Positions 8,671 through 36,147 of a stretch of 36,147 nucleotides of DNA are shown piece by piece. The stretch's first letter is position 1, and each line of letters begins with the position of its first letter. The translations under genes were made by a program, and so were the position numbers. Source of the DNA: a virus (Duplodnaviria > Heunggongvirae > Uroviricota > Caudoviricetes); the IMG/VR virus record IMGVR_UViG_2623620505_000004, positions 1 through 36,147 of that record. One strand, given 5' to 3'. The notes beneath the pieces were generated by a model. It ran no database searches, was not told the DNA's origin, and worked only from the letters and a program-made list of their open reading frames with translations.

Positions 8671-9189
8671 TTATAAAAAATAATCATCATGAGAGGAAAC
8701 ATGAAAATTATAATCTCTCAATTGGGGGATAATCCCTCTACTCCAAAGCAACGTTTTATTTAGTCCAAGTCCATCTAATTTCATCATCCTGTTGCGCAGC
8801 GCAATGAATTCATTCTTGAAGTTATCTGCAGAGATGATCTTTGGGCAAAAACAAGAATACAACTTTCTATTACTTACACCACAAGCATTGGCAAGCTCAT
8901 CCTCAAAATTGCTTGTTTGTTGAAATAGGTGGATTGTGTGTTTTTTCGCCTTTAATAGATTGAGATTATTCTTAAATCTATCAAGATTCTCAATCCTATC
9001 CGTATCAAAAACCACTATGATTTCGCTATTTTCGGTTAATGCTGGCATGTATTTATTTATATTAACATTCCATAAATTAGCAATTACTATTTTCTTAATA
9101 GGATAGCCTAGCAATGTTTTGAAATCCTGAAACAATGCTTTTTCCGTATCTCCCTCAACAAGAATAATAGCAAATTTCTTAACTGCCAT
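8671..9189 (-). CDS. Small TOPRIM-clan protein (OLD/DUF4435/RloB-like), putative nuclease partner of the upstream ATPase
   Basis: ATG at 9189 (GAGGA upstream) 2 nt after the ATPase stop; the ORF-track start at 9195 is TTG. 172 aa. AILVEGDTEK (TOPRIM glutamate) and IVVFDTDR (DxD) in the expected order. Strongly AT-rich. Confidence 0.6.
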   Translation of the reverse strand: MAVKKFAIILVEGDTEKALFQDFKTLLGYPIKKIVIANLWNVNINKYMPALTENSEIIVVFDTDRIENLDRFKNNLNLLKAKKHTIHLFQQTSNFEDELANACGVSNRKLYSCFCPKIISADNFKNEFIALRNRMMKLDGLGLNKTLLWSRGIIPQLRDYNFHVSSHDDYFL

Positions 9190-9191
9190 AA

Positions 9192-10391
9192 TCAATCCTC
9201 AAATAGCATCTCTTCGATTAATGAAACGTCAGGTATTGTTGCAAAACAGTCATTTTTTACTTTATTTAAAAGATTGCGATCATTCTTTTTATGATGTGTG
9301 GTAGCTTCAACAAAAGTGGTTACACCATCTACTTTTTTAGTAAAAGTATATGAATGCGTAGGCAGATCTAAGCTCAAGATATCATAATTATGTGTGGTGT
9401 ATATAAATTGACCATATCTGCAAAGCTTAGATATAATCAGCGTGACCATCATTTTTTCTAATTCAGTATGAGTGAAGGCCATTTTCTCATCCAAAAAGTA
9501 CACCCCACTGCAAGGGAAATTGAACTCTCGCTCTTCTATTTTATCTTCAAGCACTCCTGACAGGAGATGGGATATTTTTACTGCCTCATAAGTACCACGA
9601 GACAGTCTATCTTTATTTGTTATATCACCTTCCATATCAATAATAACTCTATCTCCATTATTGAAGACTACTGAATAACCCTGCAAATCCTCCTTTCCCT
9701 CATCATCTTTAAGAGTGAGTCCTGAGACAGATTTAACAGTATTGTCAAAGGTTTTTAATATGCTATTAAGCACATTCTTCTTAATTCGTGATATTTTATC
9801 CGTGTTCTCTTGGTTTTCAGATAGAATGAAATGCCAACCAAGAACAAAGTCCAAATCCTCTAAATATTGGGAAAATTCTTTTGAGTTAGCGTTTTCGGTT
9901 GAAAAAAATCTATTTTGACCATTTAATTCAAACTTTTGCGCATCCCACACAGCATCCAGTCTTTTGGTCGTCTTTGCGCATGATTCCGAGCTTCTTAAAT
10001 CAACAGATGCCATTGCAATTTTTTCTACAACAACAGACTCATCCATAGCCCTAAGCCAGACACCTGCCCTAAACAAACATTTTAAATGACTCTGGAAAAA
10101 GTCAACCTCTATATATGCAGGTTTTCTTTTGTCAGTAATTTTTAACGGTTCTGGATTGAAAACACCACTACTGAGAAAACGCAACACAGAAAGCATCACG
10201 CGACCAAGAGATGTTTTACCAGATGCATTAGCACCAGAAACGATGCAAACCTTTTTGAAGTAGAACTTTTCAAATCCATCAATGTACTCACCTTCCAGTG
10301 AGCTGTTGATCGGGGGTCTGGAGAAGCTTAAGTCAAGGATGCTATTTTCAAAGCAAAACAGATTATCGATTCTGATTTTTGTAAAAGCCAT
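9192..10391 (-). CDS. ABC/AAA-type ATPase (AAA_15/AAA_21-like), putative defense ATPase
   Basis: ATG at 10391 with GGTGG RBS. Walker A GANASGKTS, signature-like LSRGTYEAV, Walker B VYFLDE, H-loop-like TTHN. 399 aa, AT-rich, tightly coupled to the downstream TOPRIM gene. Confidence 0.75.
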   Translation of the reverse strand: MAFTKIRIDNLFCFENSILDLSFSRPPINSSLEGEYIDGFEKFYFKKVCIVSGANASGKTSLGRVMLSVLRFLSSGVFNPEPLKITDKRKPAYIEVDFFQSHLKCLFRAGVWLRAMDESVVVEKIAMASVDLRSSESCAKTTKRLDAVWDAQKFELNGQNRFFSTENANSKEFSQYLEDLDFVLGWHFILSENQENTDKISRIKKNVLNSILKTFDNTVKSVSGLTLKDDEGKEDLQGYSVVFNNGDRVIIDMEGDITNKDRLSRGTYEAVKISHLLSGVLEDKIEEREFNFPCSGVYFLDEKMAFTHTELEKMMVTLIISKLCRYGQFIYTTHNYDILSLDLPTHSYTFTKKVDGVTTFVEATTHHKKNDRNLLNKVKNDCFATIPDVSLIEEMLFED

Positions 10392-31460: not shown

Positions 31461-31617
31461 AGCTTCAGCCCCTTGTATCCGTTAAATGATTCGGCAACAA
31501 TCATCACCCACCACGCGCGTAATCTCACCCCTGCGCCGTTCTCCCGACCCGGCGACAACAAAAAGCAGTAACCCCCTCCGCACGCACATGCGACCATGCC
31601 GCACAGGGAGAGAACAG
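31461..31617. promoter_or_regulatory. Divergent promoter region between FI (minus) and D (plus)
   Basis: Intergenic region that must carry promoters for the minus-strand FI-U block and for plus-strand D; no confident Ogr dyad recognised. Confidence 0.35.
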
Positions 31618-32727
31618 ATGACCGATACCACCATGCAATTGCTCAGTCAGGGCACAGACCCCGTGAAAATGCCGGATTTTGATATTCTCGCAGAGGGTAA
31701 AACGCTGTCCGGCGTGGCAGAACGCCTGATGAGCCTGTCGCTGACCGACAACCGGGGATTTGAAGCGGACCAGCTCACCATCAAGCTGGATGATGCGGAT
31801 GGTCAGTTGCAGCTACCGCCACGGGGCGCGCGCCTGACGGTTCTCATTGGCTGGAAAGGAGAACCGCTGACAGAAAAAGGCACTTACATTGTTGATGAAA
31901 TCGCTCACGAAGGACCGCCGGACAGGCTGACTGTTTCAGCCAGAAGCGCAGATTTTCGGGATGAATTTAACGTTAAACGTGAGGTGTCCTGGCATGATGT
32001 GACCGTTGAACGCGTGGTATCCGCCATCGCTCATCGGTACGGCCTGAAACCGCAAATCAGCGAAATGCTGATGGATATCGAAATCGACCACGCCGACCAG
32101 ACTGAAGAAAGCGACATGTCCTTCCTTACGCGCATGGCGGAAATGCTGGGCGCAATCACCACGGTAAAAAGCGGTAATCTGTTATTCATCATGCCCGGTG
32201 GTGGCGTGAACGCACAGGGTCAGCCGTTGCCATCGTTTGCCATCACACGCAACAGCGGCGATCGCCATCAGTTCCGCATTGCTGACCGCGAGGCGTATAC
32301 GGGTGTACGCGCCTACTGGCTTGATCTTAATTACGGGAAAAAGAAAAAAGTCAGCGTGAAACGCCGCAAACCGCCAAAACCCAAAAAGGAGAAAAGTAGC
32401 AGCCGTGAAGGTGATTATATGGAAGGCGCGGAAGGCAATGTGTTTGTGTTACGCAAGACTTATCAAAACGAGCAGGCAGCAAGACGCGCAGCGGCGGCAA
32501 AGTGGCAGCAGCTACAACGCGGAGCCGCAGCGTTCTCCATCACACTGGCACGTGGACGCGCAGAACTCTACCCCGAAATGCATGGCACGGTAACAGGATT
32601 TAAAAGCGAGATTGATAATCAGGACTGGATTATTGCGAAAGCCGAGCACACCATTGATAACAGCGGCTTTACCACGCAGCTTGAGCTTGAAGCAAAAATC
32701 CCGGAGTGGATAGCAGAAACAGAGTAA
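31618..32727 (+). CDS. D: Late tail protein gpD
   Basis: ATG at 31618 after GGAG; blocks SWHDVTVERV, ESDMSFLTRMA, GNLLF, WLDLNYGKKKKVSVKRR, AKWQQLQRGAAAFSITLARG align with P2 D as remembered. The ORF-track start at 31486 lies upstream. Confidence 0.85.
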   Translation: MTDTTMQLLSQGTDPVKMPDFDILAEGKTLSGVAERLMSLSLTDNRGFEADQLTIKLDDADGQLQLPPRGARLTVLIGWKGEPLTEKGTYIVDEIAHEGPPDRLTVSARSADFRDEFNVKREVSWHDVTVERVVSAIAHRYGLKPQISEMLMDIEIDHADQTEESDMSFLTRMAEMLGAITTVKSGNLLFIMPGGGVNAQGQPLPSFAITRNSGDRHQFRIADREAYTGVRAYWLDLNYGKKKKVSVKRRKPPKPKKEKSSSREGDYMEGAEGNVFVLRKTYQNEQAARRAAAAKWQQLQRGAAAFSITLARGRAELYPEMHGTVTGFKSEIDNQDWIIAKAEHTIDNSGFTTQLELEAKIPEWIAETE

Positions 32728-32815
32728 ACAACTTAAATGTATAAGCTAAGATATTAGCTGGAACGCTTGCTGCACAGAGGCAGCCCCAATTTGACAATCA
32801 CTTCTATGACAGAAG

Positions 32816-32838
32816 CGCTACCTTATTATAAGGTAGCG
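32816..32838. repeat. Perfect 10-bp inverted repeat (CGCTACCTTA-tta-TAAGGTAGCG) in the D / ATPase intergenic region
   Basis: Read directly; no adjacent U-tract, so it may be a protein-binding palindrome rather than a terminator. Confidence 0.4.
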
Positions 32839-32978
32839 TAGATTGAGCAATCTATATCGTGCTAAAAACACATGTTGAATATTTAGATATCGATGTGATA
32901 TTAACGTTATATCAAGAGAGTTAATGTTCTACCGAACCTTATTATCAGAGTTTATTATAGATAAACAATTACTATCAA

Positions 32979-33016
32979 TAAGAGCCACGCACGCAATATT
33001 TTGAGGCTGTGGCTCT
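32979..33016 (-). terminator. Putative terminator hairpin downstream of the 712-aa ATPase gene
   Basis: AAGAGCCAC...GTGGCTCTT 9-bp stem with about 20-nt loop, roughly 25 nt after the minus-strand stop at 33040; moderately T-rich 3' side on the minus strand. Confidence 0.35.
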
Positions 33017-33039
33017 TATCTGTGAACCTACGAGGTTCG

Positions 33040-35178
33040 TCAGGCAATCTCGCGACCAACATCGTCATTTGCCGCAAAAGCTGATAGTAACAAATTATCA
33101 CACTCAGTTATGACATATTCTGGAATGAGATCGAATCTAGCCGGATCCAGCTGGCAGATAAACTCATTTTCGATATGATAGGTTTCATTAATAAATTTCT
33201 GAATTACAGAGTTTGTATGCTCAATACCCATTAACCTGAAAACTTGCAATTTTTCGTAGCTACTTTTGCAACTGAAATAAAGCGTGGTGAGAAAGTTTTC
33301 GCAGGTGATTTTTGCTAGCTCTACCTTATAGTTGAAATCTGGAATATGATTAATTATTTCGTGACAACCTAAATTTTCACTAACTTCTGACATTAACGAA
33401 TATTCCCCGTCGATCTTCGCCAAGCGCCTATCCTCCAGAAATTCCCGCTTATGAAAAAGATTTGAAAGCACTTGATAGGCATCCCCCAGATCATCAAGGA
33501 TTTCGTAATGACGGCGAAGATATATCAACTTAATAATATCGTCACTCACAGACTGTAGAGCCGATGTGCAGATTTGAGCAAAAGTTTTGATATCCGAATT
33601 TGAAATTGGTTGCTCTGTAATAACACCATTACTGTAGCGGAGATAAGCTGCTGAAACTTGATTATCAAATTGCTGCCTAACAGCGCGAATAGTATCGATG
33701 ATTGGCTCAACATCATGCGTCAACATCAGCACTGTTTTACTCTTAAGACAATCAGATGGCTCTCTACGAAAAAGCATTTCAAGAATCGCAAACTTCTTAT
33801 TTTTATCGAACGAGGAAATGGGATCATCCAAAATAATCAGACTTGGTTTTCTAGAAAGACATTCATACATGAAGAGCACGAGGGCAAACGCATTTCTTTC
33901 ACCGTAACTTAGATGTTGGCTACCACCAGTGACGACATCTGTATGATCTACATGATAGAGTTGTAGTCGTGGCTGTGCATCGTCTGTTATCCGCACACGG
34001 TAACGATAACCAGCATAGGATAGAAAATCATTGATATTTTTTTGGTGCTTTATAACGAGCTGGCGTACTTTATTCCGCTGCTGATTCAGTTTACCCTGAA
34101 GTGGTCCAGCGCTTGCAATTAGATCAGTCAGAGAAGTATTGAGTGCATCAACAATACGTGTGGTTTCTTCTGATTGAAGTTCAGTAAAGAAGTCCAGATT
34201 CAACTTGTAAGAGGCGAGTTTAGCAGCTACATCGTCTCCTTCTGTGAAGCTAAATCCGGAAAGCGTTTTAAGCACGGTAAGTTTATCTATTAGATCATCT
34301 GTTTGAGATTTAAGGGTGATAAGATATGTTTCATGCTGCTGCTCAAGACCATTAGGAAGGGTTGTGATTTCTTTAAGACGATCACGGGCAGAGTCAGTAA
34401 GGTAAATTCCTAAACGCTGAATGACATCAACAAGCTCCATCAAATTTTTGATGACAGCTTGGTCATATTCTACTCCAACCTGTTGAATTCGTTGTTGTTG
34501 TTGTTCGGTAGATTCACTACTGCAATAAGGACAGTACTCACCCGCAAGTTCACCAAACTCTGTTAGCCCTTTTGTCTGCCAAGCAATCCACTGCACACTT
34601 TTATTACTAGTTATCATGTTTCTGTACGGTTCAAGTGCGGCAGGGATATGAAGAAGTTTATTACCTCCAGCAAGCGCTTTCATACCCTTTGTACTTTTAC
34701 TAAGAGCAGATGCTGCAGTGACTTTAAATGCACTGGATAAAACAGTGAGATCGCTCAATAGGGTTTCCAGTTGTGTATGCTCGGTAAACACCTGACGGAT
34801 CGTCGAAATAATTAATTCTATTTCACTCTCTGTTCTGATATACGCGTCAGTTTTGATTAATATGTCGAAACTGTTGGCTACAAGCTCATCCTGACGGAAT
34901 GTGAACTGGCTAACATACTCCTCATTGAAACACATTATATTATCTAGTTGTTCCATTCCGGTCACAGAGGGCGCAACATTATCGGGGTTATTTGCCCTGA
35001 ATTTAAAAGGAAGTAATTCTGCCAAACAAGCTTCCTGCCCAGGCAAACTGAACTGCATCGCCCGAGCAATAGTGCTTTTCCCTGTACCATTCGGCGCAAA
35101 ACGAATATTCAACTTTTTTTCGGCTAGAGAAACAGTAGCAAAGTCAATGCTATTACAGTAACTAATTTCAATTTCCAT
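33040..35178 (-). CDS. Rad50/SMC-like ABC ATPase with coiled-coil CxxC hook and C-terminal HEPN-like domain (RloC/AAA_13-like); candidate single-gene defense protein
   Basis: ATG at 35178 after GAAGG. Walker A APNGTGKST near the N-terminus; long helical insert containing CPYC; signature LSYGERN, Walker B LIILDDP and H-loop LMLTHD about 450 residues later; C-terminal about 200 aa with RLMGIEH (Rx5H). AT-rich island. Confidence 0.75.
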   Translation of the reverse strand: MEIEISYCNSIDFATVSLAEKKLNIRFAPNGTGKSTIARAMQFSLPGQEACLAELLPFKFRANNPDNVAPSVTGMEQLDNIMCFNEEYVSQFTFRQDELVANSFDILIKTDAYIRTESEIELIISTIRQVFTEHTQLETLLSDLTVLSSAFKVTAASALSKSTKGMKALAGGNKLLHIPAALEPYRNMITSNKSVQWIAWQTKGLTEFGELAGEYCPYCSSESTEQQQQRIQQVGVEYDQAVIKNLMELVDVIQRLGIYLTDSARDRLKEITTLPNGLEQQHETYLITLKSQTDDLIDKLTVLKTLSGFSFTEGDDVAAKLASYKLNLDFFTELQSEETTRIVDALNTSLTDLIASAGPLQGKLNQQRNKVRQLVIKHQKNINDFLSYAGYRYRVRITDDAQPRLQLYHVDHTDVVTGGSQHLSYGERNAFALVLFMYECLSRKPSLIILDDPISSFDKNKKFAILEMLFRREPSDCLKSKTVLMLTHDVEPIIDTIRAVRQQFDNQVSAAYLRYSNGVITEQPISNSDIKTFAQICTSALQSVSDDIIKLIYLRRHYEILDDLGDAYQVLSNLFHKREFLEDRRLAKIDGEYSLMSEVSENLGCHEIINHIPDFNYKVELAKITCENFLTTLYFSCKSSYEKLQVFRLMGIEHTNSVIQKFINETYHIENEFICQLDPARFDLIPEYVITECDNLLLSAFAANDDVGREIA

Positions 35179-35555
35179 TTTTTTGCCTTCTTATTACGTT
35201 AGTAAGGCAATCACAATACCAACAATTCATTAATAAGTTTACTGCTGGATTCAAAACAAACCAACTTGTGTCACAATATTTAAATTCTATACAGTTTTTC
35301 CGTTTCTCCCCCCTTATGAATGAGGGTTCTATTGCAAGCCTTTCGAGCATAAAGCATCAGTTCCTAGTACATATCGTGGCTTTTCTTACAATTGAGCGCA
35401 TGGCCTGTTTTTCCATTTATTTGTATGTGACATAAGCAAAATCACTTTTTTATAGTAAAAATGTACATCCTCCTCTCGACAAAAGCTGTCTGGCAGTTGG
35501 AGCTTGAGTCAAGACAACTTAAAATAGCGACAGCACCACGTTAAGGGAGGTCGCT

Positions 35556-35816
35556 ATGTTCCGTTGTCCGCTTTGTGGCGCATCTGCCCGTATCCGCACA
35601 AGTCGCCCTGAAAATGATTCGAATACCGTGCGGCAAAAATATTACCAGTGTAACAACCTGGAATGCGGCGTATGCTTCTCAACACTGGAAGCCTTCCATA
35701 AATTCACATCGAAACACGCCTCCAGCGCTCACTCTTCGGAGAGTATCCCTTGGCATGATCTGCCAGCTTCACACAGAGGAAACAATCAGATGAGTTTGCC
35801 CTTACCTCAGAATTAA
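35556..35816 (+). CDS. ogr: Ogr/Delta-family zinc-finger late gene activator
   Basis: MFRCPLCGASARIRTSR...YYQCNNLECGVCFSTLE aligns with P2 Ogr (MFHCPLCQHAAHARTSR...YHQCQNVNCSATF) including both Cys pairs; AAGGGAGG RBS. Confidence 0.85.
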   Translation: MFRCPLCGASARIRTSRPENDSNTVRQKYYQCNNLECGVCFSTLEAFHKFTSKHASSAHSSESIPWHDLPASHRGNNQMSLPLPQN

Positions 35817-35876
35817 CAGGCAGAATTGCCGGAGTAACAAAAAAGCGATAGATTACGCGCGGGTGCCTTTCGGCTG

Positions 35877-36140
35877 ATGGTCGGAGGGAATACCCGAAGG
35901 CCAGATGTGGAAAGGCCCCGGAAAACATCTCTGTTTAACCGAGGCCCTAACCGCATTACCTTGACAAGTGAAAGGTTAGCGCCTCTCCGGAAAAGGAGCA
36001 AGTGCTATGTCGCAAAAATCGCTTACGGCCATCACGTTCTGCGTGACGGCAATCCTCATCATCTGGATGTTGCACGGTTCGCTGTGCGAAATACGGATGA
36101 GCTTCTGGGGAGCGGAGTTTGCGGCGTTCTTACAGTGTAA
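35877..36140 (+). CDS. Possible mok-like overlapping frame of the hok locus
   Basis: 87-aa ORF overlapping the hok frame and ending 7 nt before the hok stop, the arrangement of mok in hok/sok loci. No sequence signature. Confidence 0.3.
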   Translation: MVGGNTRRPDVERPRKTSLFNRGPNRITLTSERLAPLRKRSKCYVAKIAYGHHVLRDGNPHHLDVARFAVRNTDELLGSGVCGVLTV

Positions 36141-36147
36141 GCAGTAA
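36007..36147 (+). CDS. Hok/Gef-family type I toxin peptide
   Basis: 46-aa ORF MSQKSLTAITFCVTAILIIWMLHGSLCEIRMSFWGAEFAAFLQCKQ: one TM helix, then the family motif SLCE and AAF near the C-terminus; preceded by a GC-rich structured leader and AAGGAG. Stop codon is the last triplet of the window. Confidence 0.7.
   Translation: MSQKSLTAITFCVTAILIIWMLHGSLCEIRMSFWGAEFAAFLQCKQ

Follow-up and report, generated by a model that had tools for sequence, protein, structure and literature searches.

Standalone ABC ATPase gene with a putative CPxC hook in the gpD-ogr gap of a P88-like prophage, a candidate abortive-infection gene of the PrrC/RloC group

The 712-aa ABC ATPase gene carried between gpD and ogr of a P88-like (P2-type) prophage of E. 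coli 1303 most probably serves as an anti-phage gene of the suicide type and falls into an already catalogued candidate family, rather than being wholly new. The reading we favor, at somewhat better than even confidence, is that of a standalone prophage-borne defense gene of the abortive-infection type, belonging to a distinct PDLC04889 clade of the PrrC/RloC (AAA_13) group. By this model, the C-terminal domain would be a divergent metal-independent tRNA anticodon-loop RNase, with an active site that may combine R555/E559 with K661/N664/H668 and a helical insertion of about 70 residues separating the two catalytic helices. The CPxC motif would join two protomers via Zn, and the ATPase/hook would keep the RNase inactive until phage infection supplies a signal that frees it; candidates for this signal are DNA ends or damage, as with RloC, and the loss of a restriction-modification (R-M) partner, as with PrrC. 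Once freed, the RNase would halt translation and abort the infection, and the lysogen population, hence the P88-like prophage, would be shielded from other phages.

The insertion was delimited by comparison with phage P88, in which D and ogr are directly adjacent (38-nt gpD-ogr gap). Homology to P88 (95%) was found to end at position 32738 of the window (the whole 36,147-nucleotide stretch of viral DNA analyzed) and to pick up again at 35516; since D and ogr adjoin in P88, the DNA in between is inserted cargo. This cargo has a GC content of 0.392 versus 0.544 for the flanking prophage, is placed between an intact gpD (ORF 31486-32727, by alignment) and ogr (35556-35816), and bears the 712-aa ORF, which has an ATG start consistent with all homologs and runs antisense to both flanking genes (Table 1). 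An earlier sequence-only reading of this DNA had noted a single low-GC gene between gpD and ogr, and this observation was confirmed; that the ORF is not a chance finding follows from the existence of more than 3,800 homologs. P88 lacks the cargo, and no relatives were found in 50,697 phage genomes.

Table 1. Positions of the gene, its encoded motifs and the cassette boundaries in the window (res, residues of the 712-aa protein).
Feature	Position	Strand	Basis
Inserted cargo cassette, 2,777 bp	32739..35515	.	P88 homology break and GC
Left core direct repeat AACTTAAAT bounding cargo	32730..32738	+	core recurs at four other cargos
Right core repeat AACTTAAAAT	35516..35525	+	core recurs at four other cargos
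712-aa ABC/Rad50-like ATPase gene WP_000402003.1, PADLOC PDC-S06 / Pfam AAA_13	33040..35178	-	ORF, profile matches
Shine-Dalgarno-like AAGAAGG, 7 nt before ATG	35186..35192	-	sequence
Stable hairpin, 21 nt after stop, 11-bp outer stem AUAAGAGCCAC/GUGGCUCUUAU	32978..33019	-	fold
Walker A / P-loop APNGTGKST, res 28-36, K34 invariant	35071..35097	-	motif, conservation
Alpha-helical insert, Walker A to signature, res ~100-390	34009..34881	-	AF2 secondary structure
CPYC putative zinc hook, res 216-219, 13-residue loop	34522..34533	-	conservation, alignment
ABC signature LSYGERN, res 423-429	33892..33912	-	motif, conservation
Walker B + D-loop LIILDDPISSFD, res 447-458, PrrC-style DD...SSxD	33805..33840	-	motif, conservation
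H-loop LMLTHD, res 484-489, H488 invariant	33712..33729	-	motif, conservation
C-terminal domain, res 495-712, beta-hairpin + about 9 helices	33043..33696	-	AF2
R555-R556-x-x-E559, proposed counterpart of PrrC R320-N321-x-x-E324	33502..33516	-	conservation, hhalign
Helical segment of ~70-80 residues, res ~579-658, with no equivalent in RloC/PrrC-type nuclease domains	33205..33444	-	deletion scan
RLMGIEH, res 648-654	33217..33237	-	R648 99%, H654 12% in 83 relatives
K661-x2-N664-x3-H668, proposed counterpart of PrrC R349-x2-N352-x3-H356 (HEPN Rx6H)	33175..33198	-	conservation

As had been proposed, the gene is standalone, with no conserved neighbor gene across homolog contexts, and is preceded by a Shine-Dalgarno-like sequence, AAGAAGG, 7 nt upstream of the ATG; this falls within 26 bp conserved with a Pantoea cassette upstream of the start. 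The downstream hairpin that had been noted was likewise recovered: the 96-nt segment that holds it (32950-33045) has a dG of -30.3 kcal/mol (z -5.74, with 0 of 200 shuffles as stable), and the hairpin, a probable terminator, is within a region also conserved with the Pantoea cassette. A simple terminator scan did not flag it because its loop exceeds 8 nt. No convincing promoter was found for the gene. This last result, together with the foreign codon and GC composition of the cargo gene and the occurrence of the allele at this site in only one of 5,426 complete E. coli genomes, would fit an inert or decaying passenger, acquired horizontally and now without a function in E. coli 1303. We regard this as highly improbable, however, as the ORF is intact and keeps all catalytic and hook residues when compared with relatives at 28-89% identity, the Pantoea cassette shares both the Shine-Dalgarno sequence and the terminator hairpin, and weak expression is expected of PrrC/RloC-type toxins (PMC2610378).

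The D-ogr gap is a genuine cassette hotspot in P88-like phages. Other cargos found there include PDC-S31, PIN and a ParA-family gene, and the cassettes have a duplicated AACTTARAAT core, terminal inverted repeats of ~12 bp and a conserved right-end frame of ~25 bp that is common to unrelated cargos, while the empty site of P88 holds a single AACTTAGAAT. Of the complete E. coli genomes surveyed (5,426), a single one had this particular cargo at D-ogr. The published P2 defense hotspot is defined as gpQ-gpA (Rousset et al. 2022), and the present cargo is positioned outside the published P2 defense hotspots (gpA-gpQ old/tin; Z/fun); the classical gpA-gpQ site of the same prophage is occupied by an AbiL-like pair. 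A description of the D-ogr hotspot was looked for in the literature, and none was found. The gpD-ogr gap adds a third moron hotspot, with cassette-like boundaries, to P2-family prophages, and single-gene defense candidates can conveniently be sought there.

All motifs named in the earlier reading (APNGTGKST, CPYC, LSYGERN, LIILDDP, LMLTHD and RLMGIEH) are present in the protein. The fold of the ATPase head matches SMC/Rad50/SbcC/RecN, its Walker B core occupies residues 447-453, and K34, S424/E427, D451/D452, S456/D458 and H488 are near-invariant in relatives; the corresponding PrrC motifs are YVFIDD216 and SSLD222 (PMC3025547). The insert between Walker A and the signature (~290 aa) was modeled by AF2 as segmented helices, the longest spanning residues 337-388, and hhalign matched it with the corresponding insert in the RloC-type family. 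Within it, the CPYC motif is conserved across 83 sequences (C216 100%, P217 98%, C219 99%), its loop having a pLDDT of 53-62 in the AF2 monomer model. This motif pairs with CPFC254-257 of the RloC-type protein of APEC O1, as does the upstream W..KG, and the alignment shows CP[FY]C to be homologous in position to the hook of RloC-type proteins.

Profile searches place the protein in a known candidate family. Residues 1-698 match positions 1-688 of 693 in PDLC04889, a sub-model of PADLOC PDC-S06 (E 2.1e-277), which was also matched by 64 of 64 divergent family members. PDC-S06 is a computational candidate made up of about 12 heterogeneous AAA_13-like sub-models, and a literature search turned up neither an experimental test of it nor a mechanism. 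Of the profiles that the sequence-only reading had pointed to, Pfam AAA_13 (PF13166) scored 64.3 bits (cutoff 36), whereas the PADLOC PrrC model (PDLC02360) gave no match at E<=1. The best AAA_13 stretch covers residues 322-491 (model positions 395-572 of 713), and in divergent relatives the alignment extends to model positions 602-658. For the 64 relatives, the listing of 25 matched families, the least-matched of them hit by 10 of the relatives, did not include PrrC. As a positive control for PDLC02360, the APEC O1 protein was matched at 9.7e-13.

A BLASTP comparison of the window protein with this APEC O1 ATPase aligned nothing beyond the ATPase motifs and hook. Full-length hhalign of the window protein against the APEC O1 family gave a probability of 99.8% (E 1.6e-27) over 519 columns, with the CPxC hooks aligned and the alignment ending, at high confidence, with R555 paired to R646 and E559 to E650 of the RloC-type family. 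The first third of the C-terminal domain is aligned to the RloC-type nuclease domain, which shows homology of this part with the RloC/PrrC nuclease domain as far as the catalytic R-x3-E helix. Among 83 relatives, R555 is conserved in 100%, R556 in 90% and E559 in 92%. The RloC-like identity first proposed for the protein was upheld in part, as the homology and the alignment of hooks and R-x3-E support it, but the PrrC HMM, the search for a HEPN fold and the spacing of the catalytic triad do not.

The assignment of the second catalytic motif differs from that first suggested. RLMGIEH had been taken as the HEPN Rx4-6H motif, but this was found to be a chance match on the basis of its poorly conserved H654. 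The motif that is conserved is K661-x2-N664-x3-H668 (96%, 81% and 100%, respectively, in the 83 relatives), in which K661-x6-H668 fits the HEPN Rx4-6H spacing with Lys replacing Arg. Only R555 and H668 are invariant in the C-terminal domain (79 sequences, 35% mean column identity), on par with K34, D451/D452, H488 and C216. The proposed PrrC counterpart, R349-x2-N352-x3-H356, is essential in PrrC and conserved in RloC (PMC3025547), and the best local profile alignment of the domain sets the K661-H668 motif against RYINRGSH of the RloC-type family, although weakly (P 0.11). The catalytic triad of RloC is Arg-X3-Glu-X36-52-His (PMC2610378); no conserved His was found at +36 to +52 in the present family (H606 2%, H611 4%), the invariant His being H668 at +108 from the Glu, about 70 residues farther from R-x3-E than in RloC. 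An unbiased deletion scan is consistent with an intervening segment: dropping residues 589-658, 579-648 or 584-653 yielded the best continuous alignment to the RloC-type C-terminal domain (103-106 columns), which runs through both motifs and lends modest support. The segment so defined contains the conserved K643 and R648. Based on motif conservation and spacing, K661-x2-N664-x3-H668 is likely to be the second catalytic motif.

These data must be weighed against a defense gene whose C-terminal domain is not a PrrC/RloC-type tRNase, but another effector with a fold of its own, a possibility we consider rather unlikely. Here, the ABC/hook would sense DNA or a phage protein, the effector would be a DNase, another RNase, or a nonenzymatic toxic or partner-recruiting domain, and the R-x3-E helix would be a structural linker from an AAA_13 ancestor. 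The AF2 model of the domain is confident (pLDDT 85.8, pTM 0.82), and neither a HEPN nor any other fold match was found when it was compared with solved structures, so the HEPN fold anticipated from the sequence was not borne out. Consistent with a separate effector are also the lack of a PrrC HMM match, C-domain-only profile comparisons with statistics at background, the Lys where PrrC requires Arg, and many extra conserved polar residues undescribed for PrrC (S572, K643, R648, E665, E670, N671 and Q676). Moreover, the domain is locked to one fixed architecture of ~700 aa in 409 representative clusters, and phmmer searches with it stopped short of PrrC- or RloC-sized proteins. Against this, in the anchored alignment R555/E559 coincide with the catalytic Arg/Glu pair of proteins whose family matches the PrrC model, the other invariant residue is the His of a [KR]-x2-N-x3-H motif with PrrC/RloC spacing, and the deletion scan restores a continuous alignment across both motifs.

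Relatives of the gene were found in many phyla, on 911 of 72,556 plasmids (625 of the 911 conjugative) and, through plasmid carriage, in roughly 15% of the complete genomes of E. coli. Their settings are defense islands. In Legionella, homolog contexts include a position directly after hsdMSR and one beside SbcD/SbcC-like genes; plasmid relatives adjoin CBASS, HsdR and VapBC and are also near CcdA; further relatives adjoin Mrr, Abi_2 and an OLD-like ATPase, and another a PRTase/RT module. A fusion to a LexA-like S24 peptidase was seen in one relative. The cargo itself holds no R-M gene. This distribution could also suit an ATPase for mobile-element maintenance or DNA transactions, acting in Rad50/SbcC-like repair or tethering, plasmid stability or exclusion, or addiction. 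The plasmid counts and proximity to the VapBC and CcdA stability genes, the ParA-family cargo at the same D-ogr site, the Rad50/SbcC-like head and the SbcD/SbcC-like neighbors in Legionella are in keeping with such a role. We nonetheless find it distinctly improbable: the window and most of the homolog contexts lack an Mre11/SbcD partner (and the cargo has no phosphoesterase), the insert is short and segmented rather than a long coiled coil, bona fide defense genes surround the gene time and again, and it has both a PADLOC defense-candidate listing and PrrC/RloC-group homology.

A further reading, rather unlikely when taken as a whole, is that the PDLC04889 clade forms a separate effector class and that, independently, the D-ogr gap of P88-like phages is a site-specific cassette-exchange locus, dedicated to the swapping of single-gene defense morons. 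With a C-terminal domain without counterpart among solved structures, an insertion of ~70 residues and a Lys-for-Arg active site, the clade may have a substrate or chemistry unlike those of PrrC/RloC, e.g., another tRNA set or site, rRNA/mRNA, or DNA. The S24 peptidase fusion of one relative hints that DNA damage or RecA* could directly provide the trigger. Should the favored PrrC/RloC-group assignment be correct, a widespread PADLOC candidate would become a mechanistically assigned defense family, the anticodon nuclease group would gain a clade missed by current PrrC/RloC profiles, and Arg349 (replaced by Lys) and fixed triad spacing would be dispensable features of the active site. Such genes may then explain strain-specific resistance of E. 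coli in phage therapy, especially to phages that encode neither tRNAs nor tRNA repair.

Of the known systems, Rad50/SbcC/SMC proteins resemble the window protein in head fold, in the coiled-coil-type insert between Walker A and the signature and in CPxC, but the window protein is unlike them in its lack of an Mre11/SbcD partner, far shorter insert and extra C-terminal effector domain. P2 Old, PARIS AriAB and AbiL are likewise morons of P2-family prophages, each with a nuclease under the control of an ABC ATPase sensor; they differ in having a TOPRIM effector, no CxxC hook and a different hotspot. The OLD and PARIS nucleases cleave tRNA, with P2 OLD reported as an abortive tRNase in a preprint. 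PrrC shares the ABC NTPase motif subtype and the order and internal spacing of the nuclease motifs (R-x3-E; [R/K]-x2-N-x3-H), yet is ~396 aa in length without the helical/hook insert (~290 aa of 712 in the window protein) and is obligately embedded in Type Ic R-M loci, whereas the window gene is standalone in a prophage.

RloC (Geobacillus kaustophilus / Acinetobacter baylyi; AAA_13, COG4694), an anticodon nuclease that excises the wobble nucleotide, is similar in being a single polypeptide whose ABC head has the DD Walker B and SSxD D-loop, whose helical insert has a central CPxC, and whose all-helical C-terminal domain carries an invariant R-x3-E and, after it, an invariant His within x2-N-x3-H; its gene, too, is usually standalone in mobile or defense contexts. 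The window protein departs from RloC in a Glu-to-His distance of 108 versus 36-52 residues (consistent with the helical insertion of ~70 aa), in Lys for the second essential Arg and Arg for the Asn after the first Arg, in having no H295 equivalent that we could find, in an AAA_13 alignment that reaches only the H-loop, and in being about 100 aa shorter than the G. kaustophilus protein, with a shorter and more segmented insert. The APEC O1 P2-prophage ATPase, WP_000423308.1, is very probably the protein that Anantharaman et al. 2013 took as the prophage ABC-HEPN prototype ('APECO1_4465'); it matches AAA_13 at 2e-111 (positions 11-713) and the PADLOC PrrC model through its nuclease domain and has canonical nuclease motifs (R646-x3-E650-x39-S689H690; MRNILE ... 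RYINRGSH). Both this and the window protein are single-gene ABC/hook morons of ~700 aa with a nuclease domain, putative in the window protein, of the PDC-S06 class, in P2-like prophages of E. coli; WP_000423308.1 matches PDLC04886 and resides in the gpA-gpQ (old/tin) hotspot, while the window protein matches PDLC04889 and is encoded at D-ogr. Prophage ABC-HEPN proteins have been proposed to exclude other phages (PMC3710099).

The 712-aa Rad50/ABC-type ATPase was found to match PDLC04889, a sub-model of the PADLOC candidate defence system PDC-S06, over its full length (E 2.1e-277) and, by this profile match, is a member of that catalogued candidate, for which we found no validation in the literature. 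It also matched Pfam AAA_13 above the gathering score, through the ATPase part only, and PHROG 2801, a family of unknown function. More than 3,800 homologs (~700 aa, ~55% identity) were detected across Proteobacteria, Chlorobi, and Cyanobacteria. In the full-length AlphaFold model (pLDDT 75.8), the ABC head was matched by Foldseek to the heads of SMC, Rad50, SbcC, and RecN; a helical insert separates Walker A from the signature motif, and CPYC lies in a 13-residue low-confidence loop of this insert. The motifs listed in the sequence-only reading are all present in the protein, and its proposal of a Rad50/SMC head with a hook motif was supported by the head fold and by CP[FY]C, whose conservation is 98-100% among 83 relatives with identities as low as 28%; the insert is segmented and of ~290 residues. 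One family member, P0201 (848 aa), has a further domain at its C terminus, a Peptidase_S24 (LexA/CI-like autoprotease; E 2e-17), which hints at a possible link of this clade to RecA*/DNA-damage signalling.

Coordinates of the ATPase gene, its motifs, and associated features
Feature	Position	Strand	Basis or remark
gpD ORF	31486-32727	opposite to ATPase gene	
Ends of cassette-like frame	32730-32760 and 35490-35525		junctions also at L015-L018 (loci with other D-ogr cargos)
Hairpin downstream of ATPase gene	32978-33019	minus	fold of 96-nt segment
ATPase ORF, ATG start, 712 aa	33040-35178	minus	ORF prediction
SD-like AAGAAGG	7 nt before ATPase ATG	minus	sequence
ogr	35556-35816	opposite to ATPase gene	
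Walker A	residues 28-36		
CPYC	residues 216-219		
Signature LSYGERN	residues 423-429		
Walker B LIILDDP	residues 447-453		
H-loop LMLTHD	residues 484-489		
RLMGIEH	residues 648-654		
APEC O1 ATPase locus (L013)	NC_008563.1 925932-928148		

The gene for the ATPase (WP_000402003.1; annotation 'AAA family ATPase') lies on the chromosome of E. coli 1303, a bovine-mastitis strain, in a prophage whose genes are ordered and oriented as in P88, a viable phage (Xuanwuvirus, Peduoviridae). The cargo was delimited as 32739-35515 (2,777 bp) because P88 homology breaks at 32738 and returns at 35516; D and ogr are adjacent in P88, and the insertion point is a few nucleotides past the gpD stop codon. An AT-rich gene at this site with its own RBS and a downstream hairpin had been claimed from the sequence, and each element was recovered: the ORF is real and antisense to both flanking genes, the cargo is a low-GC island (0.392 vs 0.544 in the flank), the start codon is preceded by an SD-like element, and the hairpin segment (dG -30.3 kcal/mol, z -5.7) is far above shuffled sequence in stability. 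The unit common to this cargo and a Pantoea cassette (32823-35204, 82.6% nucleotide identity) spans the gene together with 26 bp of upstream sequence and ~217 bp on the downstream side, hairpin included. A 60-aa ORF (35168-35350, minus strand) that shares 11 nt with the start of the ATPase gene is probably spurious, since it is not preserved in the Pantoea cassette, to which similarity extends only 26 bp beyond the ATG on the upstream side; another stretch of 75 bp (35369-35443) is 76% conserved with Pantoea and might be promoter-related. A perfect palindrome with 11-bp arms, CGCTACCTTAT-A-ATAAGGTAGCG (32816-32838), was observed in the 3′ region of the cargo exactly at the end of Pantoea homology (32823), and might mark a recombination boundary or act as a terminator, either a second one or one working in both directions.

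Two other features of the prophage end were noted. In the RefSeq annotation, gpD is split into a shortened protein of 267 aa ('VgrG/Pvc8 family') and an opposite-strand pseudogene fragment; residues 63-413 of the gpD ORF align to the entire gpD (387 aa) encoded by a prophage of E. coli APEC O1, and the shortening looks like an annotation artefact, not truncation. After ogr lies a hok/sok-type module (35861-36147; Hok/Gef ORF start at 36007), also present in P88, with an Rfam sok match of 48.4 bits (E 6e-9), below the gathering score of 59.

The D-ogr site is neither of the only two variable loci cited in P2-like phages by Rousset et al., who studied the gpA-gpQ locus. In a rank-spread sample from 1,143 E. 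coli records with the flanks, 33 sites were empty and 22 held one of at least nine single-gene cargos: PIN, YecA-family, DUF3800, DUF2971 (PADLOC PDC-S31), ParA-family, three hypotheticals, and the window ATPase. Five cargos compared in detail are all low-GC and share (i) the insertion point; (ii) a flanking duplicated 9-10-bp core, AACTTARAAT, of which the empty P88 site has a single copy; and (iii) despite being unrelated, a ~25-bp right-end sequence, CAGTTGGAnnnTGAGnCAnnAC. The cargo ends form a ~12-bp imperfect terminal inverted repeat, GTnTTRRCTCA, and insertion could proceed by site-specific exchange, TSD plus TIR, or excision between repeats. The window allele was found at D-ogr in 1 of 5,426 complete E. 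coli genomes. The family itself is present in 801 of these, mostly on plasmids, and on 911 of 72,556 plasmids (625 of them conjugative); among 50,697 deposited phage genomes, none gave a tblastn match.

No conserved neighbouring gene was detected across homolog contexts in Pantoea, Serratia, Legionella, an E. coli plasmid, and integrase islands, in agreement with the proposed standalone gene. The Pantoea homolog is in a tmRNA-side island, that of Serratia between IS elements, and that of Legionella directly 3′ of hsdM-S-R; integrase-island homologs occur with Mrr, Abi_2, an OLD-like ATPase, and PIN-MazE, and one homolog adjoins a PRTase/reverse-transcriptase module. A 712-aa paralog (WP_000350635.1, ~53% identical), very common on conjugative Enterobacteriaceae plasmids, lies on pEcIMT16316 between a CBASS pair, HsdR, and VapBC; a DUF3800 gene is nearby, a family also seen among the D-ogr cargos.

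A second defence candidate was observed in the prophage beside the portal/terminase genes, at the classical gpA-gpQ hotspot (8671-10391, minus strand): a 399-aa ABC ATPase (AbiLi match, E 1e-27) and, downstream, a 174-aa protein with a weak AbiLii and GajA TOPRIM-region match (E 6e-5), which by these matches look like an AbiL/PARIS/OLD-like pair. In the APEC O1 P2-like prophage the same hotspot holds, at the expected gene index, a 738-aa AAA ATPase that we infer to be APECO1_4465, the type of the prophage-borne ABC-HEPN proteins grouped with PrrC/RloC in a 2013 HEPN survey. This canonical RloC/PrrC-type protein belongs to AAA_13 over its full length (2e-111), is matched by the PADLOC PrrC model via its nuclease domain (1e-12), and has textbook MRNILE ... 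RYINRGSH motifs with an E-to-H spacing of x39. Since the D-ogr junction of that prophage is empty, two different PDC-S06 clades occupy two different P2-family hotspots.

The C-terminal domain was compared with this family using profiles built on 104 relatives of the APEC O1 ATPase. RLMGIEH, earlier taken for a HEPN Rx4-6H motif, was rejected because H654 occurs in only 12% of relatives, though R648 is conserved. Other conserved residues of the domain are R555, R556, E559, S572, K643, K661, E665, H668, E670, N671, and Q676. Only 19 residues are strictly invariant among 79 sequences (35% mean column identity): the catalytic residues of the ATPase, C216 in the hook, and just two in the whole C-domain, R555 and H668. 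Full-length profile-profile alignment of the two families (Prob 99.8%, E 1.6e-27, 519 columns) pairs the hooks, runs beyond the H-loop through a beta-hairpin, and ends at LIYLRRHYEIL vs NIMRNILEYY, placing R555 on R646 and E559 on E650. With the C-domains alone, the best local alignment (KFINETYHIEN vs RYINRGSHSDA) scored 15.6, at control level (12.4-15.0). An unbiased scan of 110 deletions with reversed-profile controls gave its best alignment after removal of ~70 residues within 579-658, continuous over 103-106 columns and covering both motifs. It scored 20.9 (E 0.009) against at most 17.7 in the controls, a gain that may be read as supportive but is not significant after multiple testing. 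Beside these scores stands the rather doubtful alternative of a defence gene whose C-domain is of a non-PrrC/RloC type.

On balance, we favor an RloC-like single-protein abortive-infection system. The ATPase/hook module would keep a C-terminal tRNA-directed RNase silent until a phage-derived cue releases it, perhaps DNA ends or DNA damage of the kind shown for RloC. R555/E559 together with K661/N664/H668 would make up the active site and surround an inserted subdomain of ~70 residues. A wider reading, a defence ATPase-effector encoded by one gene, is on firmer ground and quite probable, as it sums this explanation and the alternative C-domain. Of the earlier RloC-like assignment, the head and hook motif stood, and the R-x3-E helix pairs with that of an RloC/PrrC-type family; we refrain from calling the protein RloC or PrrC proper, since it fails on triad spacing and in the profile tests. 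RloC is defined by R-X3-E-X36-52-H, and the essential PrrC nuclease residues common to RloC are R320, E324, R349, N352, and H356 (plus H295), with N321 also essential in PrrC. The window family carries R555-x3-E559 and K661-x2-N664-x3-H668, in the same order and with the same internal spacing as the PrrC motifs, but has Lys where PrrC has R349 and a spacer of 101 residues vs 24. Its Walker B/D-loop, DDPISSFD, has the DD...SSxD pattern described for PrrC. P2-family prophages repeatedly carry tRNases under the control of an ABC ATPase.
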